A stretch of 32,000 nt of DNA from Candidatus Methanophagaceae archaeon (lineage in GTDB: Archaea > Halobacteriota > Syntropharchaeia > Alkanophagales > Methanospirareceae). The translations under genes were made by a program, and so were the position numbers. The notes beneath the pieces are model-generated. The model saw only the letters and a list, made by a program, of their open reading frames with translations, was not told the origin of the DNA and ran no database searches. Positions 396 through 30,977 of this stretch are shown here, in pieces. The DNA lies in NCBI GenBank assembly GCA_003194425.1, contig PQXB01000001.1, positions 760,444 through 792,443 of the forward strand, given 5' to 3'. How positions within the stretch are numbered: position 1 is the first letter of the stretch; each line of letters begins with the position of its first letter.

Positions 396-1415
396 CTACT
401 CTTCCCCTCCTCCGTCTCTGTCTGTCTCTGTCTGACGCACAATTTCCAAATAAACTTCTTCCAACGACTTCTCAACCCTCTTCAACTCCTCCACCTTCAC
501 CCCCGCTCTCACCAGCCGCTCCAAGAGCCTTGAAGGGCTCTCTGCTCCCTGTCCTTGTCCTTGTTTCTGTTTCAGAGCCACACGCAGCCTCACACCCTTT
601 CCCCTTCCTTCTCGCTCTAGCTCGCAGTCAGCCACGAAGTCCTGCTCCAGCGAGCCAACGACTTGCAACGCTCTTGCAGCCTCCTCGCTGTCTGCGAACG
701 CGACTTCAACCACCGGTCTGCTGAACCTTCTCCGAAGGTTTTCGACCGAGTCGTAGGCTCTCAGCTCGCCGTTCTGCAGGATCGCGATTCTCGTGCAAAT
801 TCGCTGCACCTCGTCCAAGTCGTGTGAGTTCAGGAAGACCGTCCTCTTCTCCTCCTTCGAGAGTTTGAGAATGAGGTCGCGGACCATTCGCTGCGCCTCA
901 GGGTCGAGACCGGTGGCGGGCTCGTCGAGGAAGAGAATTTCGGGCTCGTGAATCAGCGCTCTCGCGAGTGCGAGTTTGCGTTTCATTCCTGTTGAGAATT
1001 TCCCGACCTTCTCGTTCCTTCTCTCCGAGAGCCCTACAAACTCCAGCAACTCTTCTACCCTCTCTCCTTCTAACCGCCGCCCTGCTCTGCTCCTACTCCT
1101 TGCAGCGACGCCGTAAAGCCGTGCGTAGTAGTCCAAGTTCTCGTGAGCAGTCAGTCGCTCGTACAGCCCGTCGCTCTCCAGAACGACCCCCACTCGTTGC
1201 CGCAGTTCCTCGTCCTCACCCAAATTCCTGCCCTCTACCAAAGCCGTCCCTGAGGTCGGCTTCAAGAGACCGAGAATAATTCGGAGTGTCGTGGTCTTGC
1301 CCGCTCCGTTTGGACCCAAATAGCCGAAGACCTCTCCCTCTTTCACCTCAAAGCTGACGCCGTTGAGCACCGTTCTCCCGTTGAACTTTTTCGTTAGATC
1401 CTGTATTTTTATCAT
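396..1415 (-). CDS. ABC transporter ATP-binding protein (ABC-2/COG1131 type)
   Basis: Walker A GPNGAGKTT, signature FSTGMKRKLALARAL, Walker B ILFLDEPATGLD, H-loop NSHD. A C-terminal accessory domain is present. There is a low-complexity insert ARSRSRAGRRLEGER. Confidence 0.9.
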   Translation of the reverse strand: MIKIQDLTKKFNGRTVLNGVSFEVKEGEVFGYLGPNGAGKTTTLRIILGLLKPTSGTALVEGRNLGEDEELRQRVGVVLESDGLYERLTAHENLDYYARLYGVAARSRSRAGRRLEGERVEELLEFVGLSERRNEKVGKFSTGMKRKLALARALIHEPEILFLDEPATGLDPEAQRMVRDLILKLSKEEKRTVFLNSHDLDEVQRICTRIAILQNGELRAYDSVENLRRRFSRPVVEVAFADSEEAARALQVVGSLEQDFVADCELEREGRGKGVRLRVALKQKQGQGQGAESPSRLLERLVRAGVKVEELKRVEKSLEEVYLEIVRQTETDRDGGGEE

Positions 1416-1418
1416 TTT

Positions 1419-1454
1419 TTACTCGTGCCTTTACTCGTGCCTTTACTCGTGCCG
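1419..1454. repeat. 12-bp tandem repeat x3 (TTACTCGTGCCT/TTACTCGTGCCT/TTACTCGTGCCG) spanning the FtsX permease stop codon
   Basis: Read directly. On the minus strand it reads CGG CAC GAG TAA | AGG CAC GAG TAA | AGG CAC GAG TAA, followed by AAA ATG, the start of the next gene. Confidence 0.95.
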
Positions 1455-2576
1455 CAGCGCCTCGATCGGCTTCAGCCTCGACGCTCGCCACGCGGGGTAA
1501 AGCCCGCTCAGCACGCTCGTCCCGATTCCGAACGCGACCCCTGCGAAAATATACAAAACGCTGGAGGGGGCGAGCAAATAAGACGCCTCCTGCAAAACCA
1601 AAACATCCACCAAGAACCCCGCGCCAAAGCCCAGAACCGCTCCTGCCACGCCGCCGACCGTGCCGAGAATTAGCGACTCAAACAAAAACATTCTGAGAAT
1701 CCCGCTCCTTGAAGTCCCGATTGCACGCATCACGCCGATTTCCTTCGTCCGCTCAACCGTCGACATCAGCATCACATTCAGAATGCTCACACCCGCGACG
1801 AGGAGCGAAATCGCCCCGATTCCGAGCAGGAAGACCGAAATCGTGCTGAACAACTTTTTTATGCCCTCCACAATCTGCTTCAATTCCATCACCCTTACGA
1901 CCTGCTCCCGCTTGTTCAGGCGGTCTTCAATCTCCCTCCTCACCTCCTCAACCTCCTCTACTTTCTCAACTTTCACAATCACCGAGTTGTAGCCCGACGC
2001 CGACGCCGAAGAGTTAAAAAGCGATTCAAACATCTTCTCCGAGACGATCACAGCGTTGTCAGGATTTATGTCGAACCCAATTCCCCGCTCCTTCAGGATT
2101 CCCACGATTCTCGGCTTCTGACCTCGCACCGCCACTCGCTCGCCCACTCGCAGCTCGTAATTCTCGGCGAGCCTTGACCCAACCAGGCAGTTCAGAGAGC
2201 CGTGCTTGAGAAACTGCCCCTCCTCTTTCTCCACCAACTTCGAAATGTCCTCGCTCCGCATCCCGTAAATCATCACGAGACTTTGCTCGCCGTTTAGAGT
2301 TGCTTTCTCGGTTCGTGAATTTATCGGGATTGCGACGGCTGCTGCTTTGTCTATTTGCTTGAAGTTCTGCTCTGAAATCGGTTCCTCACCGTAGGGAAAG
2401 ACCACGAGCTCGTTCCCGATCATACACAACTGCTCCGACGCGGAGAGTCGGACGCTGTTGCCGAGAATTCCGAGTGCGGTTATCGCGAGCACGCCGATCA
2501 CGATTCCGACGACCGCGAGGACGGACCTGAACTTGTGCCTTGCGAGGTTCCGCTTCGCAAACTCGAAGAAAATCAT
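1443..2576 (-). CDS. FtsX/MacB-type ABC transporter permease (COG0577)
   Basis: 377 aa. It has an N-terminal TM helix (FRSVLAVVGIVIGVLAITALGIL), a large extracytoplasmic domain, then three C-terminal TM helices with the FtsX-like motif TKEIGVMRAIGTSR. Confidence 0.85.
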   Translation of the reverse strand: MIFFEFAKRNLARHKFRSVLAVVGIVIGVLAITALGILGNSVRLSASEQLCMIGNELVVFPYGEEPISEQNFKQIDKAAAVAIPINSRTEKATLNGEQSLVMIYGMRSEDISKLVEKEEGQFLKHGSLNCLVGSRLAENYELRVGERVAVRGQKPRIVGILKERGIGFDINPDNAVIVSEKMFESLFNSSASASGYNSVIVKVEKVEEVEEVRREIEDRLNKREQVVRVMELKQIVEGIKKLFSTISVFLLGIGAISLLVAGVSILNVMLMSTVERTKEIGVMRAIGTSRSGILRMFLFESLILGTVGGVAGAVLGFGAGFLVDVLVLQEASYLLAPSSVLYIFAGVAFGIGTSVLSGLYPAWRASRLKPIEALRHE

Positions 2577-5648: not shown

Positions 5649-5729
5649 TGAATAGATTATGAAAATATAACGCTTGGGGATTTAGAGGTAGGAGAAGAGA
5701 TTGAAATAGAGCCTCATCCAGAGGGTGGA

Positions 5730-5993
5730 ATGCCGGTTTACTGCACTATTTGTGATGTCGAAATGGAGAAGACAAAAATTAATGTGAAGCGCGGGAATAT
5801 TATGCTTCTCGACATAGAGGCTTACAAGTGCCCACAATGTGGAGAAGGAGTTTTAGACATTGACACTGCATCACAGTTGGAGCGTGAGTTTGGATTGCGA
5901 GATCAGGAAAATAGCACGAAATATGAATTGAAATTGTTAAAAGAGGGTGCGAATTATTTGCTGCCTCTTCCGAAAGAGTTTGTTAATAAATGA
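5730..5993 (+). CDS. Small zinc-ribbon protein (YgiT/MqsA-type CxxC...CxxCGE) with a possible AbrB/SpoVT-like C-terminus
   Basis: 87 aa with CTIC...CPQCGEGV. The C-terminal KEGANYLLPLPKEFVNK resembles the swapped-hairpin xxxVxIPKEhxxxL motif. The gene is low in GC. Confidence 0.45.
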   Translation: MPVYCTICDVEMEKTKINVKRGNIMLLDIEAYKCPQCGEGVLDIDTASQLEREFGLRDQENSTKYELKLLKEGANYLLPLPKEFVNK

Positions 5994-6018
5994 AATAAAG
6001 ATACTTTTAGATCTAGAT

Positions 6019-6739: not shown

Positions 6740-8038
6740 TTACCGCTTCTTCCACGAGTACGCAATCAGCCCGACGACCACTGCGACCACAAAGAGCAGA
6801 ACGACCACGACCGAGAGCGGCAACTCGCCGACGCCAACACCGGAACTTCCCGTTCTCTGCCCCTGCTGACGTTCGATCGCGATGTATTCGGTTTTTGAGA
6901 AGAGAAAGCCGTCCTCGTCCTTGTACTCGATGCGAAGCGGCACCTTCGTCCCTTCTCCTTCGTTTTCTCTGTCTTCAGAGACCTTTACATCGAGTTCAAA
7001 ACTGCTGAAGTCGTCAGGACTGAGCAGACCCACGAAATAGGATTTGTAGGGGTGCGTTGCTTCTACACCCTCTGCGTCTCCGATTTTCATAACCACGCCG
7101 TTTGCGTCCTCCAAGCCCGCGTTGTTTATGTCGCCTGTGATTTTGTAGTTGTAGATTCCCGAACTTCCCGAACCGCTTGCACTTGGCTCCACCTCAATTC
7201 CAGTGAGCACGAGTTCTGGCTTCTTCTTGCTCTCCGTCACTTTTAGGGGCAGGCTCAACTCCGCAGAGTGCAGGTTCTCGCCGTTCTTGAACTCCAACTT
7301 GAAATTGAGGAGACGAGTGCCGTTCGTTTGCGGTGTGAAGTTAAAAGAGGCGGTTTTTGTCTCGTCCCGCGAGAGTGCTCCAACGAAGACTTCTGAAGGC
7401 ACCAGTTCCTCTCCTCCTGCCACTCCTTCTCCTCCTTTCTCTTCTTCCTCTGCCTCTTCTCGTCTCTCTGCTACCGCGGTGATTTTCACGCCCGTTGCGG
7501 TGTTCGGTCTGGGGTTACCGACTGCGAGTTCGATTCTCGCCCGCTCTCCCTTAAAGATGTCCTCTGGAACGTCCTTGACCGCGAGGGTCAGCAGTGTGCT
7601 GTCCACTCTTACAGGAAAGGAATATCGTATGTTTTGGGCGTCTTCCCCTTTCACCAGCACTCGGGGGTAGTAAATGCCGTCAGGACAGGCGGTCGCTTTT
7701 AGCGTGAATGTCAGGTCCAGGCTCTCTCCGTGTCCCAGCCTGCCGATGTTGAAGTAGGAGTCGCTCGCCACTTTGAGCTCCTTGCTCAGCAGCCGTGCCT
7801 CTTTTATGTTCACGCTCTTCGCAAGTTCCGCGTTCTTCACGGTCACGGTTACCGTGCCGAGATCGTTGGGCATCAGCACCTCGGGAGTCAGCTGGTAGCC
7901 TGTAATTTGGATTGAAGTTTTCTGCTCTTCTCTTGCAACCTGTGCCTGTGCCTCTGAGACGCCAGAGCCAGCGAGTCCTACTACACCGACTACGAGTAGG
8001 GCTAAAAAGAGTAGAGAAAGAGAAGAGGGAAATCTCAT
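6740..8038 (-). CDS. Cell-surface protein, COG1361/CARDB-like beta-rich domains, signal peptide plus C-terminal TM anchor
   Basis: N-terminal signal peptide LSLLFLALLVVGVVGLAGSG and C-terminal anchor LPLSVVVVLLFVVAVVVGLIAYSWKKR. Repeated beta-strand-rich modules are present. This protein type is commonly encoded beside COG0577/COG1136 ABC pairs in archaea (recollection). Confidence 0.55.
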   Translation of the reverse strand: MRFPSSLSLLFLALLVVGVVGLAGSGVSEAQAQVAREEQKTSIQITGYQLTPEVLMPNDLGTVTVTVKNAELAKSVNIKEARLLSKELKVASDSYFNIGRLGHGESLDLTFTLKATACPDGIYYPRVLVKGEDAQNIRYSFPVRVDSTLLTLAVKDVPEDIFKGERARIELAVGNPRPNTATGVKITAVAERREEAEEEEKGGEGVAGGEELVPSEVFVGALSRDETKTASFNFTPQTNGTRLLNFKLEFKNGENLHSAELSLPLKVTESKKKPELVLTGIEVEPSASGSGSSGIYNYKITGDINNAGLEDANGVVMKIGDAEGVEATHPYKSYFVGLLSPDDFSSFELDVKVSEDRENEGEGTKVPLRIEYKDEDGFLFSKTEYIAIERQQGQRTGSSGVGVGELPLSVVVVLLFVVAVVVGLIAYSWKKR

Positions 8039-8043: not shown

Positions 8044-8805
8044 TCACACCCCTAACGAACTGGGATTTCTCAACAAAAGGACGAGGATATAAATCGCTAC
8101 AGGAATGGCAACGGTGAGGACTGCGTCCCTCGTCGAGAGGTTCCGTGCGTGCTTCAGCCCGAAGATCCAAATGTTCGCACTCCAAAGCATAAAGAGGATG
8201 CCAACAGCGGAAGAGAGCCGCAGCAGCGGACTTGTCAGCAGCGGTGCGAGCGCTTTTTGAATCTCTGCTGGGTCTGCTACGTTTGTTACTACTGGAATCT
8301 GCGTGGTTGAGACGAAATTGTAGACGAGCACTGCACTTACGAGTCCGCTGAAGATTGTAGGAATGTAGCCGTAGCCCACGAACTCGAGCGTCCGCTTGAA
8401 CTTCCCCTCGCCCTTGAAAAGGCAGGACACGGCGAAGAACAGGGCAGCAGCGACGACCCAAATGACGAATGAACTGACCACTGCACCCACAAAAGCACCT
8501 ACGCCTCCAACCGCCGAAACGACACCCAGAGCCTCTTGCGGAAGCGTTTGCGATTTTCTGAGCATTTCAAATGTTACACCTGCCATCAAAAAAAGAGAGA
8601 TTCCGCCGACTAACCCGCTTGTCAGGACGATGAGCGCCGGTATTTTCAGACTCGGCTCTCTCTCCCCTCTTCCCCATTCTCCTTCTCCGCCTCCTTTTCC
8701 TTCTCCACCTCCTTTTCCTTCTCCGCCTCCTGCTCCTTTTTCTTCCCTCTCCCCTTTCGCCTTCGCTTCAAAAAATCTGTTCGGATTTGTCAAGACTTCC
8801 AACAT
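8044..8805 (-). CDS. Yip1-domain integral membrane protein
   Basis: 253 aa. The N-terminus LTNPNRFFE is followed by about 5 TM helices. A G/E/K insert lies after residue 16. Confidence 0.55.
   Translation of the reverse strand: MLEVLTNPNRFFEAKAKGEREEKGAGGGEGKGGGEGKGGGEGEWGRGEREPSLKIPALIVLTSGLVGGISLFLMAGVTFEMLRKSQTLPQEALGVVSAVGGVGAFVGAVVSSFVIWVVAAALFFAVSCLFKGEGKFKRTLEFVGYGYIPTIFSGLVSAVLVYNFVSTTQIPVVTNVADPAEIQKALAPLLTSPLLRLSSAVGILFMLWSANIWIFGLKHARNLSTRDAVLTVAIPVAIYILVLLLRNPSSLGV
8681..8734. repeat. In-frame 18-bp tandem repeat x3 inside the Yip1 gene (encodes GEGKGG units)
   Basis: CCTTCTCCGCCTCCTTTT / CCTTCTCCACCTCCTTTT / CCTTCTCCGCCTCCTGCT, read directly. Confidence 0.95.
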
Positions 8806-8831: not shown

Positions 8832-9473
8832 TTAAATATTTTTAATTTTTGCGGTTTGCAGTTGTTTCAGCCTCGCACGCATATTTTTCCAGTGGCTGCC
8901 TTTCCAGTAAACCCTGCCACACCGCTCGCAAACCCAGAACTCCCTCTTCCCTTCCCCTTCTCTTTCTCCTCCTTCTTCCCCTTCTCTTTCTCCTCCTTCT
9001 TCTCCTTCTCTGACCCCGACCCTACCCGCAGGCACATAATTTTTTTCCTTGAGCATTGCCTCTTCTTCTTTCCCGCTCCCGACCAGCCTCAGCCTCGCGT
9101 TGCACTCGCTACACCTCGCAGGGACTGGTTCGAGGTTCAGGTGTGAGGTAAGGTCGTGGCGAAGCAACTCCTGCAACTGCTCCATCGCGTTGTCGGTTTT
9201 TATTTGAACGCACTGGACGCCCTTTTTCGTCGCCGCTGCCGCGAGGTTCTTGTCTCGGGTGAGCAGTATTCGTGCCTCGTGCTCCGCCAACGCGGTGAGG
9301 CTTCTGTCCTCTTCTTCTCCCTTCTTCTCCTTCTTCCCCTCCTCCCCCTCCTCCCCCTCCTTTCCTTCTGCTTTCACCTCCGCAGCGTAAACGGTGTCGT
9401 ACCCAAGGACACGAAGCCAAGTGGTAAGTTTTCCCAACATTCTGTCGGTTACGAATTTTTTTTCCGCAGCCAC
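8832..9473 (-). CDS. Mut7-C RNase domain (DUF82, PIN-like plus Zn-ribbon) protein
   Basis: N-terminal FVTDRMLGKLTTWLRVLGYDT and C-terminal CSECNARL...CERCGRVYWKGSHW. Two G/E-rich inserts are present. The start overlaps the coaBC 3' end by 25 nt. Confidence 0.8.
   Translation of the reverse strand: MAAEKKFVTDRMLGKLTTWLRVLGYDTVYAAEVKAEGKEGEEGEEGKKEKKGEEEDRSLTALAEHEARILLTRDKNLAAAATKKGVQCVQIKTDNAMEQLQELLRHDLTSHLNLEPVPARCSECNARLRLVGSGKEEEAMLKEKNYVPAGRVGVREGEEGGEREGEEGGEREGEGKREFWVCERCGRVYWKGSHWKNMRARLKQLQTAKIKNI
8952..9010. repeat. In-frame 24-bp tandem repeat x2.4 inside the Mut7-C gene (encodes [21 protein letters not shown])
   Basis: Positions 8952-8975 equal 8976-8999 exactly. A partial third copy has one mismatch. 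Confidence 0.95.
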
Positions 9474-10830: not shown

Positions 10831-10861
10831 TCCCTTCCCCCCTCCCCTCCTGCTCTTCCTT

Positions 10862-11122
10862 TTACCTACTGTCCCTTCGTTTTACGGTTATCGGAATAGC
10901 GTCTTTCTCGAACTCCTCGACCGCTATTTCTATCGAGTCCATCTTCTCGGTTTTTATGAGCACTGGCGCCCCAGCTGCTATTTGCAACGCTCTCGCACCG
11001 ATGATCCGTGCTTTTTCGTACTTCGTGTAGTTCTTTTTCACTCTTTCCTCCTCCTTTTCCTCCTCCTCTTCTTTTCCTCTTCTTCCCTTCTTCCCTTCTT
11101 CTTTTACTGCTACTTCTACCAA
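10862..11122 (-). CDS. rpoK: DNA-directed RNA polymerase subunit K (Rpo6)
   Basis: Core [24 protein letters not shown]...[11 protein letters not shown] start with GGGAGGGT 8 nt upstream. A K/E-rich N-terminal extension of about 30 aa makes the start uncertain. Confidence 0.85.
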
Positions 11123-11244: not shown

Positions 11245-11466
11245 TCATTCATACGGCGCAATCTCGTCTACCAACTCCGCGTGCGTTAAAAGCATTCTCC
11301 GGCAGCAGTACCTCTTTACCCCCAACTCATCCAGCACCTTTCCCGGCTCCTCTCTCTCTCGCTTTCTCCCTTCCCCTGCTTCTGCCTCTTCCCCTGTCCG
11401 CTCTTTGTACTCTTCCCAGACGCTTGAAATTACTTTTCCGCAAGTAAAACACCTGACTGGAATCAT
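11245..11466 (-). CDS. rpoN: DNA-directed RNA polymerase subunit N (Rpo10)
   Basis: [13 protein letters not shown]...[17 protein letters not shown]. An internal insert [19 protein letters not shown] is present. Confidence 0.9.
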
Positions 11467-12848: not shown

Positions 12849-12932
12849 TGCTTTGTCTAAAAATTAACAAGTCAGCGTAGTTTTACCTGTCTAATCTAAT
12901 CAAGCATAAACAAACTAAACTTTCTTACCCCA

Positions 12933-15480: not shown

Positions 15481-16973
15481 TACAAATCTCGGATGTCGGT
15501 CAGTCCGAGCTGAATCATTGCGAGCCGCCCGACGCCGAGCCCCCAAGCCAAAACCGGGTGTTTCACGCCCACCGGATTCGTTACCTCCTCCCTGAAAATC
15601 CCTGCACCGCCCAACTCCAACCACCCCCGCTCTGCCACGAAGACCTCGACCTCAACCGACGGCTCGGTGTAGGGGAAGTAGCCGGGTCGGAATCTGACTT
15701 CGGGAAAGCCCATTTTCTTGTAAAACGCTGAGAGGCAGCCCAGCAGGTTGCAGAAAGTCACGCCCTCGTCCAAAACAATTCCTTCCAACTGGTCGAACTC
15801 GGGAATGTGCGTTGCGTCAATCGTCTCGCGGCGGTAAACGCGGTCAATGCAAAAGACTTTAACCGGCGGCTCTGGGTGGTCGGCAAGATATTTTAAAGTA
15901 ACCGCCGTAGTGTGCGTCCTCAAGAGCAGCTCCTCTCCTAACTCCCTCCGCCACGCACCGCCCCAACCCGCGGAATTCAGCGAACCGCCGTGCTCGTGCA
16001 TTTCTTTTACATTTTTTACTAACTCCTCTGGGGCGTCGGTCGGCTGCCTCGCTCCCAAGTAAAAAGTGTCCTGCATCTCGCGTGCGGGGTGGTCTTGCGG
16101 CACGAAGAGGGCGTCGAAGTTCCAGAACGCGGACTGAACGATTTCGCCTTTTATTTCCGCGAAACCCATCTCGGTGAAGATTCGCCGCATCCTGTCCAAA
16201 ATCCGCTGGTAAGGGTGCACCTTCGCAGGAAAAACCTCTTTTGACGGCAGATTTACGTCGTAGCGCTTGAACCTCACGGTTCGCCACGAGCCTGTTCTCA
16301 GGTGCTCGGGCGTGAGCTGTGCGACCTCTTCCTCAACCTCCTCCGCTGAAATGCCTTGCGACAGAACTTCTCTTCCTGCCTCTGTAGCCACTACTTTTCT
16401 CTCCACGCGTGAGTAAGTCTCCAGCAAGTTCCGCGAGACCAACTCCCGCTCTTCAGCCGAGACCACCCTCTCTGCCTCTCCTCCCTCTCCTCTCTCTCCT
16501 CCCTCTTCACTCTCTCCGCCTTTAGCCACAATTTCCAGCAGTTCCTCGTCCGCACCTAAAGGCAACCCCTCCAAGACCTCGGTCGGCACCAAGAACCTCG
16601 CTGCACCCCGCTTTTCAAACCTTGCCCACCTCTTCTTCAGCAGCCAAATTATCGCAATTTTCGCCTCCTGCTCGTCGAACGCGGCTTTGAGCTCTTCAAC
16701 AGTTGCACCCTTCTTTGCTCTCAAGAACTCCAGCGCTCTCCGCTCCGGCAGCCCTTTCTCCGCGTACTCTCTCCCCTCCGCGGTTAAACGACAAAACTCC
16801 TTCTTCTCCTCCTGCACCTCGCAAAGCCTCTTCTGAGCGAGGAAAAACGCGGTCTGCATCACCGCGTCCTCGTTCACGCCTGTCTTCTCGGAGAGACTCC
16901 TTTGGTCGCAGACCTCCCCCTCACCAAGAGCCAGCAGAACTCTCTTCTCGCTCGCAGTCAATTCTTCTTTCAT
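15429..16973 (-). CDS. pheS: Phenylalanine--tRNA ligase alpha subunit
   Basis: 514 aa. Class II motifs are HPYQRILDRMRRIFTEMGF, FVPQDHPAREMQDTFYL and GLGVGRLAMIQLGLTDIRDLY. Insert GGESEEGGERGEGGEAER. ATGA overlap with the hisB stop. Confidence 0.92.
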   Translation of the reverse strand: MKEELTASEKRVLLALGEGEVCDQRSLSEKTGVNEDAVMQTAFFLAQKRLCEVQEEKKEFCRLTAEGREYAEKGLPERRALEFLRAKKGATVEELKAAFDEQEAKIAIIWLLKKRWARFEKRGAARFLVPTEVLEGLPLGADEELLEIVAKGGESEEGGERGEGGEAERVVSAEERELVSRNLLETYSRVERKVVATEAGREVLSQGISAEEVEEEVAQLTPEHLRTGSWRTVRFKRYDVNLPSKEVFPAKVHPYQRILDRMRRIFTEMGFAEIKGEIVQSAFWNFDALFVPQDHPAREMQDTFYLGARQPTDAPEELVKNVKEMHEHGGSLNSAGWGGAWRRELGEELLLRTHTTAVTLKYLADHPEPPVKVFCIDRVYRRETIDATHIPEFDQLEGIVLDEGVTFCNLLGCLSAFYKKMGFPEVRFRPGYFPYTEPSVEVEVFVAERGWLELGGAGIFREEVTNPVGVKHPVLAWGLGVGRLAMIQLGLTDIRDLYQPDIDWLRRARVRARV

Positions 16974-17615: not shown

Positions 17616-18233
17616 CTATTCCTCTTCCTCTCTCTTTAATTTCACCACTTTAAAGCCTGGTACAGGTGCGTCTCCCAACACCTCCAAAATCGTGCACCTC
17701 TCCCCCTTTTTTAGACCCAACGGGTTGCACAATTCAAATAACTCGTACTCCCCTTCTTCTCCTCCTCCTTCCCCCTCTCCTCCTCCTTCCCCCTCTCCTC
17801 CTCTCTCACCTTCCGCCTCTCCCTCCCTCTCTCCTTCTTCCGCTTTACCGCTGCCACGCAGAGCAGTCGGCTCAAAAATAATCTTGGAACCCTTCAAAGC
17901 ACGCTTCGCCTCTACCAACGCTTTTACCGCCGGCTCCCTTACCTCCACAACTCGCACACCGTCCTCGTGAACCTCGCAGTCGTGCTTTATTTCTTCTCTC
18001 ACCTTCTCAACCAAGTACCTCCTGCCAACCTCAAGGTTCGTGCAAGAGTTTTTCAACTTACACTGCCTGCACTTCTCAGCAGCCCCTAAAAACACGAACT
18101 CCTCGCCCACCTTCGCTAACTTGCTGCCAACTAAGGTCACGATTTTTTCGTCTTCGTCTTTCTCTTTTCCGTTCTCTTTTTTTCCCTTCTCAGCTTTCGC
18201 GTCCCCTCTTAGCCTGTTCCACAGTCCGTGCAT
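17616..18233 (-). CDS. UPF0179-family protein with a large G/E insert
   Basis: IVTLVGSKLAKVGEEFVFLGAAEKCRQCKLKNSCTNLEVGRRYLVEKVRE..CEVHEDGVRVVEV matches my recollection of UPF0179. A GTG at 18140 would give the family-typical N-terminus MTLVG. The 40-aa insert is GKAEEGEREGEAEGERGGEGEGGGEGEGGGEEGE. Confidence 0.65.
   Translation of the reverse strand: MHGLWNRLRGDAKAEKGKKENGKEKDEDEKIVTLVGSKLAKVGEEFVFLGAAEKCRQCKLKNSCTNLEVGRRYLVEKVREEIKHDCEVHEDGVRVVEVREPAVKALVEAKRALKGSKIIFEPTALRGSGKAEEGEREGEAEGERGGEGEGGGEGEGGGEEGEYELFELCNPLGLKKGERCTILEVLGDAPVPGFKVVKLKREEEE
17761..17796. repeat. In-frame 18-bp tandem repeat x2 (CCTCCTCCTTCCCCCTCT) inside the UPF0179 gene
   Basis: Positions 17761-17778 equal 17779-17796 exactly. 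Degenerate copies continue on both sides. Confidence 0.95.
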
Positions 18234-18307: not shown

Positions 18308-19448
18308 TTACGCCCGTAGCCACTGCGAGCCGTTCTGCAGCCTCAGAAGTGAGCCCCGAGTCGCCCAAGATTGTGTAGCGGGCAGGGTTAATTTTGTGTG
18401 CCAAGGTCAGTGCAGCGATTACAAACTCGTCTTTCACGCCCAGCTCTTTTGCAGTCGTCGGCGCACCGATTTCTTTCAGCGTCTCTCGGATTCGTCGCCA
18501 GTTCTCGCCGTACAGGTAAGACATCATTATTGTGCCGACGCCACACTGCTCGCCGTGCAGAGCACGCGCAGCCGAGTTCTCCACAAGTCGGTCAAGGGCG
18601 TGGCTGAATTTGTGCTCGGAGCCGGAGGCGGGGGCGGAGGTGCCGGCGATGCTAATTGCGACACCGCTGGAGACCAACGCCTTTAGCACTGTCCAGGCGG
18701 ACTGCTCGTCTTTTACGCTGATTTCCTTGACTCTCTCAATTACCATTTCAGCAGTCTTTTCAGAGAGGGCCGCGGCGGAACTGCTGAACTCCGCGTTCCT
18801 CAGGCGTCGTGCAAGCTGCCAGTCCCGCACCGCGGTGTAATTTGCGAGCAGGTCTCCGCAGCCGGCAGCGGTAAAGCGGAAGGGCGCCGAAGAAATTATC
18901 TCGGTGTCTGCGACGACTGCGAGCGGTGCGTCTGCCTGCACTGAGAAGGAAGTGCCTCCGTCCTCGCCCTCGCCTTCACCCTTGCCCTTGCCTTCACCCT
19001 TGCCCTTGCCTTTTACCGAGGCTCTTGGCGAGGCGATTCCGTCGTGCGAGGCAATTGTAGGCACAGAGACGAAAGGAACGCCGAGCTCAAACGAGGCTAT
19101 TTTCGCGGTGTCAATTACGCTGCCCCCTCCCACGCCGAGCAGGAACTTCGCTCTGGCTTTGGCTCCGACTCTGGCTCGGGTCTCTTTCACTTGCTCTACG
19201 ACCCTTTCTACGCTCTCTCTGCTTATTCCCGGCACCTCCACCAACTTGACTTCGTAACCCGCGTCGGACAAAATCTCAACCACCCGCTCGCCTGCTACTT
19301 TTCTCGTGTAGTGTGACCCTGTAACGACAACCGCCTCCTTCTCCACACCCAAGTGCCTGCAGACCGTGCTGATTTCGTCAAGGACGCCGTGCCCAACTAA
19401 GACCTCTCGAGGCAGTTGCGTCCATTTCACCTTCTTAAATCTTTGCAT
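18300..19448 (-). CDS. egsA: Glycerol-1-phosphate dehydrogenase [NAD(P)+]
   Basis: Start set at MQRFKKVKWTQLPREVLVGHG (ATG 19448, 2 nt after the upstream stop). The ORF-track extension to 19601 is R-rich and overlaps the Memo-like gene. Motifs GVGGGSVIDTAKIAS and SHDGIASPRAS are present. The insert is KGKGKGEGKGKGEGEGEDGG. Confidence 0.88.
   Translation of the reverse strand: MQRFKKVKWTQLPREVLVGHGVLDEISTVCRHLGVEKEAVVVTGSHYTRKVAGERVVEILSDAGYEVKLVEVPGISRESVERVVEQVKETRARVGAKARAKFLLGVGGGSVIDTAKIASFELGVPFVSVPTIASHDGIASPRASVKGKGKGEGKGKGEGEGEDGGTSFSVQADAPLAVVADTEIISSAPFRFTAAGCGDLLANYTAVRDWQLARRLRNAEFSSSAAALSEKTAEMVIERVKEISVKDEQSAWTVLKALVSSGVAISIAGTSAPASGSEHKFSHALDRLVENSAARALHGEQCGVGTIMMSYLYGENWRRIRETLKEIGAPTTAKELGVKDEFVIAALTLAHKINPARYTILGDSGLTSEAAERLAVATGVID
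18972..19007. repeat. In-frame 18-bp tandem repeat x2 (GCCTTCACCCTTGCCCTT; encodes KGKGEG) inside egsA
   Basis: Positions 18972-18989 equal 18990-19007 exactly. Confidence 0.95.
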
Positions 19449-20308: not shown

Positions 20309-21060
20309 TCGTATATTTCCGCCTCAAAATCCTCCACGCTGTAACCGAACACGAACTCCTCCTCTTCTCCTTCTCGGCGGTGCCGCTCTCTCAACACCTC
20401 CCGAGCAAGCAGCCAGTAGACGGTGGCAAGTGCTTTTCTGCCGTGGTTGTTCGTAGGAATGACGAAGTCCACGTTGGTGGTTGAGTTGTTGGTGTCGCAG
20501 AGAGCCAGGATTGGAATGCCCGTGCTCACGCCCTCGAGCAACGCTTGCGCATCCGTCATCGGGTCGGTCACGACCAAAATCGCAGGCTCACGGAAATATT
20601 CCGAGCCGGGGTTTGTTAAAGTGCCGGGGATAAATCGCTCGACTATTGACGCTGCTCCCGTCGCCTCGGCGAACCTGCTCACGGGGTGGTGTCCGTACTC
20701 CCGCGCCGAGACGACCAAGACCGAAGAAGGCTCATAATTCGCCAAGAACCTTGCAGCAATCAACAGCCTTGCATCAATTTTTTCTACATCCAGCAAATAC
20801 AGCCCGTCCGGTCTTGTTTGGTAAATAAATCGCTTCATATCGCCGGTTTTTTGCTGCGTTCCGATGTGGACGCCGTTTAAGAAGTAAGTCTCACTCGGCA
20901 GTAGCACCGTCTTTTCGGTTCCTGCTCTTGCTCCTACTCCTCTTTCTCCCCCTACTCCTCTTTCTTTCTTTTCTGCTCTTTCTCTCTCCTCTCCACCTTC
21001 GTCCTCCTTCTCCCTCTCCTCTCCTTCCTCTTCTGCCATCATTTCTTTATCTTCGTTCAT
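20305..21060 (-). CDS. rps2: 30S ribosomal protein S2 (uS2) with an acidic/G-rich N-terminal extension
   Basis: GVHIGTQQKTGDMKRFIYQTRPDGLYLLDVEKIDARL...AILVVTDP. About 45 aa of low-complexity N-terminus makes the start uncertain. Confidence 0.88.
   Translation of the reverse strand: MNEDKEMMAEEEGEEREKEDEGGEERERAEKKERGVGGERGVGARAGTEKTVLLPSETYFLNGVHIGTQQKTGDMKRFIYQTRPDGLYLLDVEKIDARLLIAARFLANYEPSSVLVVSAREYGHHPVSRFAEATGAASIVERFIPGTLTNPGSEYFREPAILVVTDPMTDAQALLEGVSTGIPILALCDTNNSTTNVDFVIPTNNHGRKALATVYWLLAREVLRERHRREGEEEEFVFGYSVEDFEAEIYE
20929..20964. repeat. In-frame 18-bp tandem repeat x2 in the rps2 N-terminal extension (encodes ERGVGG ERGVGA)
   Basis: TGCTCCTACTCCTCTTTC / TCCCCCTACTCCTCTTTC, read directly. 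Confidence 0.9.
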
Positions 21061-21071: not shown

Positions 21072-23917
<2,846 letters not shown>

Positions 23918-25971: not shown

Positions 25972-26799
25972 TCTCTTCAATGCCTCCAGAACGCCCTCAA
26001 AAGTGCTTCGCCCCGCAACCAAATCCACCCGCACACCTTCCTCTGAAATGCTCTCGGCGGTCAAGTCCCCAATCGCAACAACCTTCGCCCGCTCCAAAAC
26101 CGCCAAGACCTCCCTTCTCAACCCCTCCTCCAACCGCTCTGCAAGCCCAAAAAATGTCTTGAAGGTTAGCGAACTCGTGAAGACGACAAAGTCCGGGTTG
26201 TAGGCTACGAGCGCCGAAAATCGCTCCTTCTCCTCTCCTCCCTCCCCCCAGTCCTTCACTGCCACTTTGTACACCGAAATGTCGCGCACGAAAGCACCCC
26301 TTCCGCGCAGGAACTCCAAAATCTCCCGCCCGCCCGCCGAACTTCGCAAAAAAACAATTTTCTTGCCACCCACCTCAACACCGCCTCGTTCCTCAATCAG
26401 CCGCATTAGCCCTCTCGCACTGTACTCCTCGGGGGGCATAAAATCCACCCGCACTCCCCGCCGCTCAAGTTCCGCCCTCGTGACCGGACCAATTGCCCAG
26501 ACCTCGACACCGCCGTCCAAAAGCCTGCCTTTCAAGTCAAATTTACCTTCGCAGAGGCTAAACGCTTTCTTTACGCCGTTCAAACTCGTGAAAACGACTG
26601 CGTCCACTCCCACTCCCTTTCCACCCTCAAAATCTCCCTTTCCGCCCTCAAAAGCCCCCTTCACCTCCTTCAACGCCTCCTGCCGCTCTACCAGCTCAAA
26701 CACAGGAAACCCGAAGAAGTCAAAGCCGTGCCTCTCTGCCTCCTCTTTCGACCGCTCAAGCACGCTCTCGGGCCGAAAAGCCGCTACCCTCTTTCTCAC
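25963..26799 (-). CDS. hemD: Uroporphyrinogen-III synthase
   Basis: 278 aa, GTG start. Two-lobed HEM4 pattern with VVFTSLNGVKKAF and DFVVFTSSLTFKTFF. Insert GAFEGGKGDFEGGKGVG. Confidence 0.78.
   Translation of the reverse strand: MRKRVAAFRPESVLERSKEEAERHGFDFFGFPVFELVERQEALKEVKGAFEGGKGDFEGGKGVGVDAVVFTSLNGVKKAFSLCEGKFDLKGRLLDGGVEVWAIGPVTRAELERRGVRVDFMPPEEYSARGLMRLIEERGGVEVGGKKIVFLRSSAGGREILEFLRGRGAFVRDISVYKVAVKDWGEGGEEKERFSALVAYNPDFVVFTSSLTFKTFFGLAERLEEGLRREVLAVLERAKVVAIGDLTAESISEEGVRVDLVAGRSTFEGVLEALKRRF
26614..26655. repeat. In-frame 21-bp tandem repeat x2 inside hemD (encodes FEGGKGD FEGGKGV)
   Basis: CTCCCTTTCCACCCTCAAAAT / CTCCCTTTCCGCCCTCAAAAG. Confidence 0.9.
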
Positions 26800-27552: not shown

Positions 27553-27630
27553 AAGAGGAAAGAGGAAAAAAATGGATGGAGTGGGGGAAACAAGAGGAAA
27601 GAGGAAAAAAATGGATGGAGAGGGGGAGAC
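27553..27630. repeat. 39-bp tandem duplication x2 containing the purine-rich RBS and ATG of atwA
   Basis: AAGAGGAAAGAGGAAAAAAATGGATGGAG(T/A)GGGGGA(A/G)AC. Copies at 27553-27591 and 27592-27630 have 2 mismatches. Confidence 0.95.
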
Positions 27631-29212
27631 ATTTGTGGAAATTCGGAATGTTAGTAAGGCGTTTGAGGGTAAAGTGGTCTTAAAGGATGTGAGCTTGAAG
27701 GTAAAGGAGAAGGAGCCGTTGGGCTTGCTCGGGAAGAGCGGTTCAGGGAAGTCTGTCCTGCTCCGAATGCTTCGCGGCACTGACGAGTACGCACCTGACA
27801 GTGGCGAGATAATTTTCAGGCTCGCGTACTGCCCTAGGTGTAGTTGGCTGGAGGGACCGAGCAAGGTAGGGGAGAAGTGTCACAAGTGCGGTGCGGAGTT
27901 CGAGTTTAGGGAAGTGAATTATTGGAAGGACCAGAAAATGAAGCGGCTGCTGAAGAGTGCGATCGCAATTATGCTGCAGCGCAGTTTCGCGCTCTACAGC
28001 GACGAGGGCGTGATTTGGAATGTTTTAGAGGCGTTGGAGCGAGCGAAATATCCGAAGAGCAAGCAGCTGAAAAAAGTCTATGAAATTCTGGAGTCTGTGA
28101 AAATGCTACACCGCGTAAATATGCCAGACACGAGGGATTTGAGCGGTGGCGAGAAACAGCGAATGGTTCTGGCACGGCAGTTGGCGTTGGCGCCGGTTCT
28201 GCTCCTTGCTGACGAGCCGACGGGAACTTTGGACCACGAGACTGCGAAGGTGGTGCACCGCGCACTAATTGACACCACACGAGGCGGGACGACTTTCCTC
28301 GTTACTTCGCACTGGCCGTACGTGATTCGCGAGTTGGCGGAGAAGGTGGCGTGGCTTGATAAGGGCGAAATCGTCGAGTACGGCGAGGCGGACAAAGTAG
28401 TAACCGAGTTTGAGAAGGAGGTGGGAGAGATTGAGCGAGAGGACTACAAGAAGTTCGGCGACCCTAAGATACGAATTGAGGGGCTGAAGAAGTACTACCT
28501 CTCGGCCTCGCGGGGCGTTGTAAAGGCGGTGGACGATGTCTCGCTCACGATAAATGAGAACGAGATTTTTGGGGTCGTGGGGCACAGCGGTGCTGGGAAG
28601 ACGAGTTTGATGAAGATTGTAAGTCATTTAGAGTCGGGAACAGGCGGTTCCGCGTGGGTGCGGATCGGAGACAGGTGGTACGAGTCGTCAAAAGCGGACG
28701 CAGGGACTTTCGTGAAAGACGGCGTAATTCAGGGCGGCACGACCGAGTGGAGATCGCATTTCGTCGGCGTGCTGCACCAGGAATACACGCTGATTCCGAA
28801 ACTCACGACCTGGGAGAACCTCACGCACGGGATCGGTCTGAATATGCCCGAGGACTTGGCGAAGATGAAAGTGAAGTTCGTGCTTGAAGGCGTGGGGTTC
28901 AGCGACGAGGAGATAAAGGAGATTCTGCCGAAGACGCACCAAGAACTGAGCGTTGGCGAGAAGCAGCGGATTCTCATCGCACAGCTGCTGATGAAAGAGC
29001 CTAATATCGCGGTGCTCGACGAGCCGACGGGGACGATGGACCCGGTAACAAAGAAATATGTCGGCGAGACGATAATTAAGGCGCGAGAGAATTTGGGCAT
29101 TACTTTCGTGATCGTCACGCACGACCTTGACTTCGCGGAGAAGGTCTGCGACCGAGTAGCAAAGATGGAGAACGGCAAAGTAACTGAGATTGAGGATTTG
29201 AGAGTAGGGTAA
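27572..29212 (+). CDS. atwA: Methyl-coenzyme M reductase system component A2 (double ABC ATPase)
   Basis: Two ABC cassettes: GKSGSGKS...LSGGEKQRMVLARQL...LLLADEPTGTLD and GHSGAGKT...LSVGEKQRILIAQLL...AVLDEPTGTMD. A Zn-ribbon insert CPRCSW...CHKCG lies in cassette 1, typical of A2. The start is ambiguous: GTG 27518, ATG 27572, or ATG 27611. ATG 27611 is the duplicated copy and gives MDGEGETFVEIRNVSKAF. Confidence 0.85.
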   Translation: MDGVGETRGKRKKMDGEGETFVEIRNVSKAFEGKVVLKDVSLKVKEKEPLGLLGKSGSGKSVLLRMLRGTDEYAPDSGEIIFRLAYCPRCSWLEGPSKVGEKCHKCGAEFEFREVNYWKDQKMKRLLKSAIAIMLQRSFALYSDEGVIWNVLEALERAKYPKSKQLKKVYEILESVKMLHRVNMPDTRDLSGGEKQRMVLARQLALAPVLLLADEPTGTLDHETAKVVHRALIDTTRGGTTFLVTSHWPYVIRELAEKVAWLDKGEIVEYGEADKVVTEFEKEVGEIEREDYKKFGDPKIRIEGLKKYYLSASRGVVKAVDDVSLTINENEIFGVVGHSGAGKTSLMKIVSHLESGTGGSAWVRIGDRWYESSKADAGTFVKDGVIQGGTTEWRSHFVGVLHQEYTLIPKLTTWENLTHGIGLNMPEDLAKMKVKFVLEGVGFSDEEIKEILPKTHQELSVGEKQRILIAQLLMKEPNIAVLDEPTGTMDPVTKKYVGETIIKARENLGITFVIVTHDLDFAEKVCDRVAKMENGKVTEIEDLRVG

Positions 29213-29255
29213 GATTTGAGAGAAGGGTAAGGGGAGAAGATTTGGAGTAGGGTAA
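29195..29255. repeat. Three copies of the atwA 3' end including its TAA (GATTTGAGAGTAGGGTAA / GATTTGAGAGAAGGGTAA / GATTTGGAGTAGGGTAA)
   Basis: Copies at 29195-29212, 29213-29230 and 29239-29255, read directly. Confidence 0.92.
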
Positions 29256-29309
29256 GGAGAAAAGAAAGGGGAGAAGAGAGGAGAAGAGAAAAAGAGGGGG
29301 TGTTTACGG

Positions 29310-30977
29310 CTACCCTTTCTCTTTCACATAAATTACATCCCCCTCTTTCAGCCTGCCGAGAAAAGACAAGGTTGCAGGGGAGAGGTCAGAGAACGAGAGG
29401 ACGATGTTGGCACCGTTGAAAGTCTCGCCGGTGGGTCCGTATTCCTCGCTGTCGGTCAGTCTAATTCCCATCATCCCTCGGTTCGCTCTTGACATATTTG
29501 TAACTCCCAGAATTCCCTTTTTGACCCCTCCCCCTTTCCCCCCCTCTCCTGCCTCTGCCAAGTTCTCAGGCACAAGTGTCCCTGCTTCCTCCGCACTGCC
29601 GTAAAATAGCACCATCACTCCTGGAAGAGTGAAATAGACCTTTAAAATCCCTATCGGTCTGTTAATCAGACCCGTAATCTTTTTAAAGTACCACACGGTC
29701 TTGGGTGCCTCCTTGTGAAACAACTCAACCTCAAAGACCCCGCTGGCGTCAACGCCGACTGTCCTTACTTCCCCAAGTTCTGCAATTTCCATCGTCAGTG
29801 CGGGCTTCAAATCCACAACCACCGCGTCGTCCGCCACATTTCCCTCTCGAACCTGCCCGATGTTTTCGCGCTCAAAAAACGCTTCCGCCTCCTTCTGCGT
29901 CTTTCCCACAACCATCATCCAACGCGGCTCGGTCACTGTGTAAATCGTGTCGCCTGCCCGAGCGTAGTCCAGCAATTCCCAGCCCTGCACCGCCTCGCCA
30001 AAAACATTGTGCGACGGGTGTGGCAGCCTGCTCTCCTTGTACGCAAAGACCTTCCCCTTCTCTGTCCCCGCGTTCCGCACCGACAGGTAATTCTTTGACC
30101 TGTAGTGAATATTTTCGGCGGGCAGGCTAAGCCCTTTCAAGGCGTCCGAAGCAAAATAAGTGTGCGAGAGGTCGTCTGCGTGAAAAAGCCCGTCTCTCGT
30201 GAGCGAGAGGAAATGCTCGCTTGACATCGGCGCTTCTCGGAACAGCCGCACCTTTGCGAAGGTGAAAATTTCCTGCCCCTCTTTTATCTCGGTCTCCAAG
30301 TCAGAGGTGGCGAACCCCGCCCGCTCCGCCTTCGTTACAATCGGAGTTATTTCCACAATTCTGTCGCCCTCCTGCAGCCCAGAAATAATGCTTCGCCCCC
30401 TCGTCAGCCGTCCAATCACGGCGTCGGGACCGGTCCCGTAGGCAGCCTCGTGCTCCCGCTTGCTCACCATTAAGTAGGTCTTGCTGGGGTCAAACCCGCC
30501 GAAGCCGAAGAAAACATCCCATTTTTTGTATTTCTGCTCGCCCCGCTGCACGCTCAGATTCGTCTTTATCGGTCCGATCGCAGTTACATTCTCGGTCTTC
30601 CAACTTACCTCTCCACTGCCCTCTCCGCTGCCCTCTCCACTGCCCTCTCTACTGCCCTCTCTACTGCCCTCTCCGCCACTCCCGCCCCCGCGGAAGTTCT
30701 TGTAATTCTCGTAAAATGCCTTTATTCCTGCTCCTGCCCCTTCTCCTTCTGCTTGGACGATTTTTATCCTTGCCTCTCTGCCTGCGCCTCTGCCTCTGCT
30801 TCTGCCTGCGGTCTTCACTGCGAATTCGTGTTTTAACTCAACGCTCTCTTTTTCTGAAGTAACGGCTACTGCACAGCCCTGCTTGTAGCCCTCTTTGTAA
30901 GCACCGAGTTCTGCGATAATCTCGCCCAACCTTCTACCTCGGACCTCCCGTGTCTCTCCGTTGAACTTGATTTTCAT
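29310..30977 (-). CDS. Probable methanogenesis marker protein 3 (UPF0288-like), with G/S/E-rich inserts
   Basis: 555 aa with a beta-grasp-like N-terminus MKIKFNGETREV. The size and its position beside atwA fit my recollection of marker 3. No motif was recognised with certainty. Confidence 0.45.
   Translation of the reverse strand: MKIKFNGETREVRGRRLGEIIAELGAYKEGYKQGCAVAVTSEKESVELKHEFAVKTAGRSRGRGAGREARIKIVQAEGEGAGAGIKAFYENYKNFRGGGSGGEGSREGSREGSGEGSGEGSGEVSWKTENVTAIGPIKTNLSVQRGEQKYKKWDVFFGFGGFDPSKTYLMVSKREHEAAYGTGPDAVIGRLTRGRSIISGLQEGDRIVEITPIVTKAERAGFATSDLETEIKEGQEIFTFAKVRLFREAPMSSEHFLSLTRDGLFHADDLSHTYFASDALKGLSLPAENIHYRSKNYLSVRNAGTEKGKVFAYKESRLPHPSHNVFGEAVQGWELLDYARAGDTIYTVTEPRWMMVVGKTQKEAEAFFERENIGQVREGNVADDAVVVDLKPALTMEIAELGEVRTVGVDASGVFEVELFHKEAPKTVWYFKKITGLINRPIGILKVYFTLPGVMVLFYGSAEEAGTLVPENLAEAGEGGKGGGVKKGILGVTNMSRANRGMMGIRLTDSEEYGPTGETFNGANIVLSFSDLSPATLSFLGRLKEGDVIYVKEKG
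30609..30680. repeat. In-frame 12-bp tandem repeat x6 (CTCTCCACTGCC variants; encodes GSGE/GSRE units)
   Basis: Six contiguous units read directly, encoding GGEGSREGSREGSGEGSGEGSGE. Confidence 0.95.

Follow-up and report, generated by a model that had tools for sequence, protein, structure and literature searches.

In-frame tandem repeats in core genes of an ANME-1c archaeon vary in copy number among closely related strains

Results

Genes of the window and reference sets

A stretch of 32,000 nucleotides (contig PQXB01000001.1, positions 760,444 to 792,443; assembly GCA_003194425.1), called the window in the following, was analyzed for short tandem repeats which lie in frame inside conserved genes. 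The DNA is that of an ANME-1c (anaerobic methanotrophic archaea, group 1c) archaeon, Methanospirareceae-like and a heat-loving methane oxidizer. According to a description of the Methanospirareceae, this family branches deeply, its genomes are small, and its optimal growth temperature is predicted to exceed 70°C; low-complexity inserts are not mentioned in that paper (PMC9894754). No species representative in the genome collection exceeds 75% identity to the PheS encoded in the window, and the top matches of this PheS all belong to Methanophagales (ANME-1) metagenome-assembled genomes (MAGs). Proteins which fall into the same clusters at 90% identity carry the names "ANME-1 cluster archaeon ex4572_4", "Candidatus Methanospirareceae archaeon" or "Methanophagales archaeon".

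Pfam supported the identification of Yip1, Mut7-C, UPF0179, an EgsA of the Fe-ADH type (glycerol-1-phosphate dehydrogenase, G1PDH), ribosomal protein S2 (rps2, uS2), NAD-dependent LigA, HemD, PheS, and NifU/IscU. A gene previously noted as marker-3-like gave no Pfam match; it was identified as mmp3 by a match to chain 8s7v_J and by named homologues. Strains were sampled as about 20 syntenic contigs from ENA, JGI, and NCBI, which are 97–99% identical to the window, together with the members of the protein clusters. Other ANME-1 loci share only pheS with the window, plus nifU in four loci, as determined by a synteny check. They were used as composition controls; synteny was too poor to obtain orthologues of the remaining genes.

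Tandem arrays in coding and non-coding DNA

Arrays were accepted when they were non-overlapping and reached a score of ≥50 in Tandem Repeats Finder (TRF). By this threshold the coding sequences contain 16 arrays, as compared to 0.35 ± 0.55 (maximum 2) in 100 codon shuffles. Their periods range from 9 to 39 bp with 1.9–6.7 copies, so that all 16 consist of head-to-tail units of the size of variable number tandem repeats (VNTRs, about 6–100 bp), and every period is divisible by three (binomial p = 2e-8). A first-pass annotation, made from the sequence alone, had listed eight in-frame repeats in the genes for Yip1, Mut7-C, UPF0179, EgsA, uS2, LigA, HemD, and Mmp3; TRF and a frame check recovered all of them at their positions, with their periods, and in frame. 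Arrays are denser in non-coding DNA, with six in about 2.9 kb (9% of the window) as compared to 16 in about 29 kb of coding DNA. The six non-coding periods are 12, 21, 16, 13, 25, and 19 bp, and several of these arrays are not purine-rich.

Pure purine or pyrimidine tracts are likewise in excess. Tracts of ≥15 nt number 65 as compared to 30.5 ± 3.4 in shuffles, those of ≥25 nt 17 as compared to 2.0 ± 0.85, and the longest spans 72 nt. Of the 51 tracts inside genes, 49 have their purines on the sense strand (p = 1e-12), in agreement with the earlier statement that the repeats are purine-rich on the sense strand in either gene orientation. Repeat units differ from locus to locus, each copying its own local sequence, and the likeness between loci is one of composition only.

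Two other kinds of insertion were considered and rejected. A shared mobile cassette or miniature insertion element does not fit the locus-specific units and the lack of terminal inverted repeats. An intein or other self-removing insertion would exceed 130 amino acids and carry splicing motifs; the inserts comprise 7–45 amino acids rich in G, E, K, and R and lack splicing residues. Internal Shine-Dalgarno-like GGAGG motifs were not enriched either (130 observed, 148 ± 12 in shuffles).

A period of 18 bp was found in nine of the 16 coding arrays (perm, surf2, Yip1, rps9, pheS, UPF0179, egsA, rps2, and ligA), and the non-coding units cluster at 12–25 bp. The 18-bp period may be a preferred duplication length.

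Repeats and inserts in individual genes

The gene for Yip1 (minus strand) carries 2.9 copies of an 18-bp unit encoding GGGEGK at 8680..8731, N-terminal and before the first membrane helix. The window has the threefold allele; two copies were found in five strains, and in four strains the region is 24 bp shorter.

In the Mut7-C gene (minus strand), a 24-bp unit encoding the peptide REGEEGGE occurs 2.5 times at 8951–9011. It lies in a tract of 72 nt of pure purine on the sense strand (8940..9011), immediately before the Zn-ribbon, and the insert adds 22 amino acids as compared to two ANME-1 homologues (P0001 and P0002), both of which lack it. Strains carry one, two, or three copies of the 24-bp unit, or an additional 9 bp. 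A first K/E/G-rich stretch in the same gene (9301..9369, minus strand), with a 63-nt polypurine tract built from 6- and 9-bp units, is 7–13 amino acids longer than in relatives and shows strain alleles of 0/6/12 bp and 0/3/6 bp. The window gene (8832–9473) encodes a stand-alone protein of 213 amino acids and starts within the 3′ end of coaBC; in P0001 and P0002, from other Methanophagales, an N-terminal HisA/HisF-like domain (PF00977) precedes Mut7-C in a fusion protein of 420–438 amino acids.

UPF0179 is 205 amino acids long as compared to a family median of 145 (149 representatives). Its GE-rich stretch of about 34 amino acids (17748..17841, minus strand) contains an 18-bp unit encoding GEGEGG, repeated 2.6 times with 100% match at 17758–17803; one copy was found in six strains and two copies in four sequences including the window. 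This stretch takes the place of the C-x5-6-C part of the family Cys motif. The gene (17616–18233) no longer encodes the first two cysteines of the family's C-terminal cluster, nor a further cysteine close to the C-terminus; low-complexity sequence is found instead, and on these sequence grounds metal binding may have been lost in this lineage. In PheS, a GE-rich 18-bp array at 16475..16517 (minus strand) lies in the N-terminal domain and, by alignment with 13 relatives, occupies the place of ordinary sequence of comparable length. PheS occurs in no fewer than five lengths (508–517 amino acids), and contig L028 differs from the window by a 9-bp indel.

The egsA gene (minus strand) contains 2.8 copies of an 18-bp unit encoding KGKGEG at 18962..19012. 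Compared to the G1PDH of M. jannaschii (4rgq), 18 amino acids are added right after the DGIASP motif, and alleles with one and two units encode proteins of 376 and 382 amino acids, which differ by one unit. An N-terminal extension of about 45 amino acids is encoded by rps2 at 20925..21034 (minus strand) and contains 18- and 30-bp units (ERGVGG and EREKEDEGGE); the 18-bp array (20925–20965, 2.5 copies) is imperfect, with a match of only 84%. Alignment of uS2 with 1vi5 confirmed the extension and revealed eight extra residues near the C-terminus. The 30-bp unit occurs once, twice, or three times (251, 261, and 271 amino acids), and other strains add 18 or 48 bp; the extension is probably translated, because the alleles are all in frame (18, 30, 48, and 60 bp).

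Two inserts were found in ligA (plus strand). The first, GE/K-rich and with an 18-bp array (22520..22576), adds 13 amino acids to the nucleotidyltransferase domain as compared to E. coli LigA (2owo). The second consists of two copies of a 27-bp unit at 23132..23185, encoding RGKGREGPV and RGKVREGPV, and adds 15 amino acids to the loop between the two Zn-finger Cys pairs. Strains carry two copies (712 amino acids), one copy (703 amino acids), or a 69-bp deletion which removes the whole insert (689 amino acids). The ligase, encoded at 21779–23917, is of the bacterial NAD-dependent type (E = 2e-196 to E. coli LigA). In hemD (minus strand), a 21-bp unit encoding AFEGGKG or DFEGGKG is repeated 2.3 times at 26613..26661; alleles with one, two, and three copies give proteins of 271, 278, and 285 amino acids.

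The mmp3 gene (minus strand) contains six copies of a 12-bp unit encoding GSxE at 30608..30680 (5.6 copies at 30608–30674 by TRF) in a predicted disordered loop, with strain alleles of three to seven copies (543–559 amino acids). A second insert of seven amino acids, GEGGKGG (29525..29550, minus strand), is absent from 8s7v_J; among the aligned homologues it is present only in the nearest relative (P0066), and its local predicted local distance difference test (pLDDT) score is about 70. Compared to M. maripaludis Mmp3 in the methyl-coenzyme M reductase (MCR) activation complex (8s7v), the protein has about 42 extra N-terminal residues and the 7-amino acid insert. It is 555 amino acids long as compared to 495–551 amino acids in 98 of 100 homologues (most of them 504–524), the remaining two being fragments. 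The inserts recur only in the nearest relative, with a full-length identity of about 99%; they are missing from two further Mmp3 proteins of Methanospirareceae (507 and 512 amino acids).

It had been suggested that the inserts fall between family motifs and form surface loops. This is supported for Mmp3: its AlphaFold2 model has a mean pLDDT of 88.2, and values below 50 occur only at residues 60–64, 77–79, and 99–119. All three segments are inserts and coil, and the last one belongs to the 12-bp repeat. The inserts of LigA, G1PDH, RpoN, and IscU also appear to sit in loops, as judged from alignments. It does not hold for PheS and UPF0179, in which ordinary sequence was overwritten. For UPF0179 and Mut7-C, a comparison with solved structures revealed no real homologue, the weak matches being due to low complexity, and for HemD it gave a partial alignment which does not cover the insert. 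The same inserts were not seen in orthologues by structure and homologue alignments; as they are missing both from orthologues of known structure and from those of other ANME-1, the inserts are not ancestral.

Low complexity also affected the homology searches. With an unmasked joint query of UPF0179, Mut7-C, and Yip1, low-complexity words flooded the 8000 candidates and only two Mut7-C homologues were returned; a masked joint query of 1216 amino acids gave zero matches, probably because very long unrelated proteins filled the candidate list. Single masked proteins could be searched.

Copy number variation among strains

All eight listed repeats vary in copy number by whole units among strains which are 97–99% identical, and the proposal of a recent and ongoing expansion is thereby borne out. 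A JGI contig differs from the window by 0.7% substitutions and seven indels, six of which are tandem copy-number changes: the 18-bp UPF0179 unit, 30 bp in rps2, 9 bp in pheS, and 3 bp in UPF0179, as well as 32 bp (two 16-bp units) in an intergenic region and 28 bp across the cobT stop codon. Pairwise comparisons of strains gave 24–36 gap openings as compared to 65–110 mismatches per 15 kb, a ratio several-fold above those typical of prokaryotes. Proteins without repeats served as controls. ThyX has 232 amino acids in 10 of 10 cluster members, and all full-length thermosome proteins have 602 amino acids except for one call of 607, which was taken as a start-site difference.

Alignments of two independent Logan assemblies with the window extend over 10.8 kb and 6.3 kb; each is free of gaps and contains a single mismatch. 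Scaffold N runs lie exactly on repeats in three contigs, namely on egsA in L050, on rps2 in L051, and on the LonC-like gene in L053, which fits within-sample strain heterogeneity.

Reading frame in genic and non-coding indels

Indel regions were classified by the lengths of their strain alleles. In-frame alleles only were found in 21 of 22 genic regions, as compared to 4 of 23 regions in non-coding DNA or leaders (Fisher p = 7e-8). Unit lengths divisible by three characterize the coding arrays and, with one exception, the genic indel regions. A cruder count of individual gap blocks showed the same tendency, with 33 of 46 genic and 9 of 39 non-coding blocks in frame (p = 1e-5).

The sole frame-breaking genic indel seen is located in the LonC-like gene (21072–21743). 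Here, a perfect 17-bp tandem duplication (AACACTTTTATTGAGTG) at 21263 in contigs L046 and L049 breaks the frame, and the gene is then called with 170 amino acids as compared to 223 or 227. A phase-variable contingency locus was rejected, as the genic alleles hold frame with this single exception. A concentration in surface, virulence, or restriction genes, as in contingency loci, was not found either; the genes concerned include those for LigA, PheS, G1PDH, uS2, RpoN, HemD, Mmp3, IscU, and the DP2 subunit of PolD.

Several further duplications were observed at gene ends and between genes. At the cobT stop codon (14936–14961), a 28-bp duplication produces a frame-shifted tail of eight amino acids; among the cluster members the resulting 376-amino acid form predominates, and the window has the 368-amino acid form. 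At the thermosome stop codon (25942–25951), a 15-bp duplication including the stop was found in L048 and leaves the protein unchanged. Between UPF0179 and egsA (18282–18300), a 16-bp unit (AGTCAAGTAGTTGGTC) is present in about one to three copies depending on the strain. This unit is not purine-rich, and therefore the duplication process is independent of polypurine sequence. Where the 3′ ends of the convergent genes pheS and nifU overlap, (ACTCGC) is repeated five times at 15421–15450; a copy change of 6 bp affects both C-termini, with RVRARV or RVRV in PheS and HTRARTRA or HTRTRA in NifU. Two purine-rich intergenic arrays on the plus strand have a period of 25 bp (29211..29300; seven length alleles among 11 sequences) and of 19 bp with 2.9 copies (31084..31139).

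Amino acid and nucleotide composition

Segments in which at least 10 of 12 residues are G, E, K, or R were found in 19 of the 30 window proteins and comprise 6.2% of all residues, including three doubtful N-terminal cases. Seven other ANME-1 loci reached 0–0.28%, bacterial loci 0.08%, and a Methanosarcinales locus 0.40%, which supports the view that such content is unusual for a prokaryote. The segments are hydrophilic throughout and acidic on balance. Of 16 additional proteins of this lineage encoded outside the window, six have G/E/K/R segments; PolD DP2, a lactamase-B protein, and an LPG synthase in which KKNEG is repeated seven times are among them. In 102 archaeal proteomes, by stringent criteria, about 0.07% of residues belong to low-complexity regions, which are enriched in T, D, and P (PMC6821194).

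Polypurine or polypyrimidine tracts occur at a density of 2.0 per kb, and of 0.53 per kb for those of ≥25 nt; in the longer ANME-1 loci the densities are at most 1.05 and 0.06 per kb. The purine content of the coding strand is 0.60 overall and reaches 0.75. The pheS gene has 0.592 purine in the window as compared to 0.55–0.595 in relatives, which lack tracts. Because relatives are equally purine-loaded without having tracts, purine loading is not a sufficient cause. The GC content of 53% is higher than in relatives (42–47%), and G is higher as well.

Inserts and leaders at further genes

In addition to the eight repeats, the first-pass annotation had proposed more degenerate inserts in other genes. 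Those in rpoN and in the nifU/IscU-like gene were substantiated by alignment to solved structures. RpoN has an 11-amino acid E/G/R/K-rich insert between the two Zn-binding Cys pairs as compared to 4qiw_N (11329..11394, minus strand), which is fixed, with no indels in any strain; the nifU/IscU-like gene encodes a 9-amino acid insert, EGEGEAGEAKG, as compared to 7c8m_A (15163..15201, plus strand). A surface protein of 432 amino acids has an E/G-rich 18-bp array (7402..7451, minus strand), which shows 18-bp present/absent alleles among strains.

Inserts in rpoK, hsp20, and the N-terminal part of ABC2 were not upheld, and the one in atwA is doubtful. The 65-nt polypurine tract upstream of rpoK (11041..11105, minus strand; 8-bp unit) is a non-coding leader: strain alleles of 8, 16, and 24 bp show that it is not coding, and other gene callers give RpoK as a 59-amino acid form. 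The N-terminal stretch of ABC2 contains a 1-bp strain indel and is probably an untranslated leader, and the K/E stretch of Hsp20 is not an insert, since it aligns without a gap to a solved Hsp16. At atwA, two copies of a 39-bp unit (27553..27631, plus strand) duplicate the ribosome-binding site and ATG. The called starts give proteins of 533, 546, or 564 amino acids, relatives begin at the last ATG, and the repeat may be leader sequence. Changes in expression could result from the repeats in the leaders of rpoK and atwA.

The 59-amino acid rpoK gene (10862–11041) is flanked by tRNA-Ala(GGC) at 10758–10830 and tRNA-Pro(CGG) at 11168–11242. Both rpoK-tRNA spacers contain hypervariable polypurine tracts (10828–10851 and 11041–11105).

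Strain-variable regions

In all 10 strain contigs L055–L064, homology to the window ends at 12874, with Cas4-like and other genes beyond rpl18e. Contigs L001, L002, and L028 all end at 13002–13126, and a 13-bp unit is repeated 3.7 times at 12933–12981. The junction near 12874–13126 either varies among strains or was mis-joined in the source assembly. The gene for an 817-amino acid surface protein with prenyltransferase/alpha-2-macroglobulin-like repeats (3478–6015) is present in L056 and L062 and absent from L055, L057, and L059. In L055 and L059 it is replaced by a ParE-like toxin pair, which marks a variable island adjoining the ABC transporter genes.

Discussion

We consider it likely that short tandem duplications and deletions are in excess throughout the lineage and that selection retains in-frame hydrophilic products in tolerant loops, which would account for the repeats. 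The ANME-1c lineage would generate, or fail to purge, tandem duplications of about 3–48 bp and the matching deletions throughout its genome. Strand slippage or template switching in replication would be the most likely cause, the sites acting like minisatellites. In non-coding DNA, units of any length would survive; in genes, selection would purge nearly all events which break frame or fold, and in-frame units would pile up in tolerant loops and at termini. The eight all-purine codons (GAR, GGR, AAR, and AGR) specify no amino acids other than E, G, K, and R, and a stop does not arise from them in any frame. Because the coding strand is purine-loaded and these codons are stop-free, the tolerated products are flexible hydrophilic G/E/K/R loops. 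Each expansion would add internal direct repeats and thereby promote further slippage, so that the process would feed itself. We infer slippage as the mechanism, and the inserts are presumed to be near-neutral. Short tandem duplications of this kind have a precedent: in Sulfolobus acidocaldarius, tandem duplications and large indels are a recognized class of spontaneous mutation (PMC7785828).

Several observations weigh against this interpretation. The 18-bp period of nine of the 16 coding arrays is not predicted by simple slippage, and the finding that equally purine-loaded relatives lack tracts shows that composition alone does not suffice. Of 48 gap blocks of ≥6 bp, no more than 22 reached ≥80% identity to an adjacent stretch in an automatic test; the alignment splits nested alleles, which leaves the proportion of purely tandem events imprecise, and the region-level count of allele lengths is more reliable than this test. 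A high standing level of indels could equally result from weak purifying selection instead of a high input rate. Finally, that the inserts are translated is presumed from the conservation of frame.

Selection at the level of the protein might also produce such loops. Charged, flexible G/E/K/R segments could act as solubility-promoting "entropic bristles" or by supercharging, and protect against aggregation at temperatures above 70°C or high ionic strength, so that longer loops would be favored. A predicted thermophile with an optimum above 70°C (PMC9894754) would fit this idea. So would the uniformly hydrophilic, net acidic inserts, the in-frame nature of most genic alleles, and the existence of fixed inserts, namely that of rpoN and GEGGKGG of Mmp3, which occur in all strains and for which an adaptation of the protein is possible. 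However, copy numbers go up and down among near-identical strains without a preferred length, arrays are denser in non-coding DNA, and the stretches in UPF0179 and PheS overwrite conserved sequence including part of a Cys motif. Thermophilic relatives sampled (G60 ANME-1, Methanoxibalbensis) have no inserts. Moreover, proteins of thermophiles tend toward shorter, not longer, loops, and a lengthening is contrary to this trend. As a general explanation, protein-level selection is therefore judged improbable.

A comparably poor prospect is given to selection on the nucleic acid, by which polypurine inserts would purine-load the mRNAs of a thermophile or form DNA or RNA structures and the amino acids would be a by-product. 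The nearly pure purine inserts, the sense-strand purine content, and the orientation of the genic tracts irrespective of gene direction speak for it. Yet the pheS genes of relatives are as purine-loaded without tracts, the hemD, ligA, and mmp3 units contain pyrimidines, and non-coding and disruptive repeats are AT-rich or of mixed composition. The strand bias is explained equally well by a filter at the protein level, because all-pyrimidine codons give F, L, S, and P. That the repeats are artefacts of MAG assembly or polishing can hardly be maintained. The N runs in three scaffolded contigs show that assemblers struggle at these sites, but the two Logan assemblies match the window without gaps, about 20 contigs from ENA, JGI, and NCBI carry the same repeats with whole-unit differences, and units of 12–39 bp are far below the length of a sequencing read. 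Independent assemblies contain the repeats as well, and within the limits of what assemblies can tell, an artefact is excluded.

An extension of the favored interpretation, an excess of tandem duplication filtered by selection, is more speculative and has at most a modest chance of being correct. The lineage could be a natural mutator for short tandem duplications, owing to a change in replication or repair with a signature of about 16–19 bp, and disordered segments of core enzymes would then arise within the time of strain divergence. Flap processing and PolD would be candidates, as would the reliance on a NAD-dependent LigA of the bacterial type, which itself has inserts. The window also encodes ThyX (31249–31947), an enzyme proposed to have entered ANME-1 from viruses (PMC9894754).

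Coding VNTRs, low-complexity inserts, and purine loading are each known, and it is their combination which is not; an earlier description of repeats so dense in core genes of a thermophilic archaeon with a reduced genome, and varying in copy number at each of the sites examined, was not found in the literature on ANME-1 and Methanospirareceae or on purine loading and low complexity in thermophiles. Prokaryotic proteomes, especially those of thermophiles, are regarded as compact and poor in low-complexity sequence. Housekeeping proteins with Asn-, Lys-, or Gln-rich low-complexity inserts occur in Plasmodium falciparum and Dictyostelium, eukaryotes with AT-rich genomes. As there, the segments described here are lineage-specific, biased, length-polymorphic loops which are absent from orthologues and match the base bias of the genome; in contrast to them, they occur in a thermophilic archaeon with a small genome, consist of G/E/K/R encoded by polypurine codons, and have near-perfect units which segregate among strains. 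Among bacteria, coding VNTRs or simple-sequence repeats are found in the contingency loci of Neisseria and Haemophilus surface genes and in PE_PGRS genes of Mycobacterium; contingency loci mostly concern surface or virulence genes and often switch a frame on or off. Slippage-driven copy changes of short genic units which are polymorphic between strains are a common trait, whereas here core enzymes (DNA ligase, phenylalanyl-tRNA synthetase, G1PDH, uS2, and RpoN) are affected, frame is held in 21 of 22 regions, and about 60% of the window genes are involved. Purine loading of thermophile mRNAs is known as Szybalski's rule and from the work of Lao and Forsdyke. The strong excess of sense-strand purine irrespective of gene orientation corresponds to it, but relatives without tracts share the loading, which sets the composition of the inserts and not their existence.

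Low-complexity regions of prokaryotes were described as conserved (Ntountoumi et al. 2019; PMC6821194). They resemble those of the window in affecting ribosomal proteins, chaperonins, and enzymes acting on nucleic acids and in being often terminal and at the surface; they differ in amount and composition (about 0.07%, T/D/P, as compared to 6.2% by a looser measure and G/E/K/R), and those of the window are unconserved even within the family. In pyrE of S. acidocaldarius, short tandem duplications and deletions are a regular spontaneous class of about 10–15% of events (PMC7785828). The events are of the same type as those described here, but there they are laboratory loss-of-function mutations in one reporter gene and here tolerated in-frame alleles throughout the genome.

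For users of such genomes, the consequences are practical: the repeats break assemblies, inflate apparent strain diversity, mislead the calling of start codons, and swamp word-based homology searches. For the biology of the lineage, about 60% of the genes in 32 kb carry segregating in-frame minisatellites, including those for DNA ligase, phenylalanyl-tRNA synthetase, G1PDH, uS2, an RNA polymerase subunit, and Mmp3, which functions in MCR activation. They provide natural allele series, such as LigA with zero, one, or two units and Mmp3 with three to seven, for the tolerance of essential enzymes to loop expansion at high temperature, and a tractable case of disordered regions arising from a mutation bias and a selective filter. 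The findings point to a peculiarity of replication or repair in ANME-1c. If the lineage is indeed a mutator, it would constitute a prokaryotic model for the origin of low-complexity and disordered regions.

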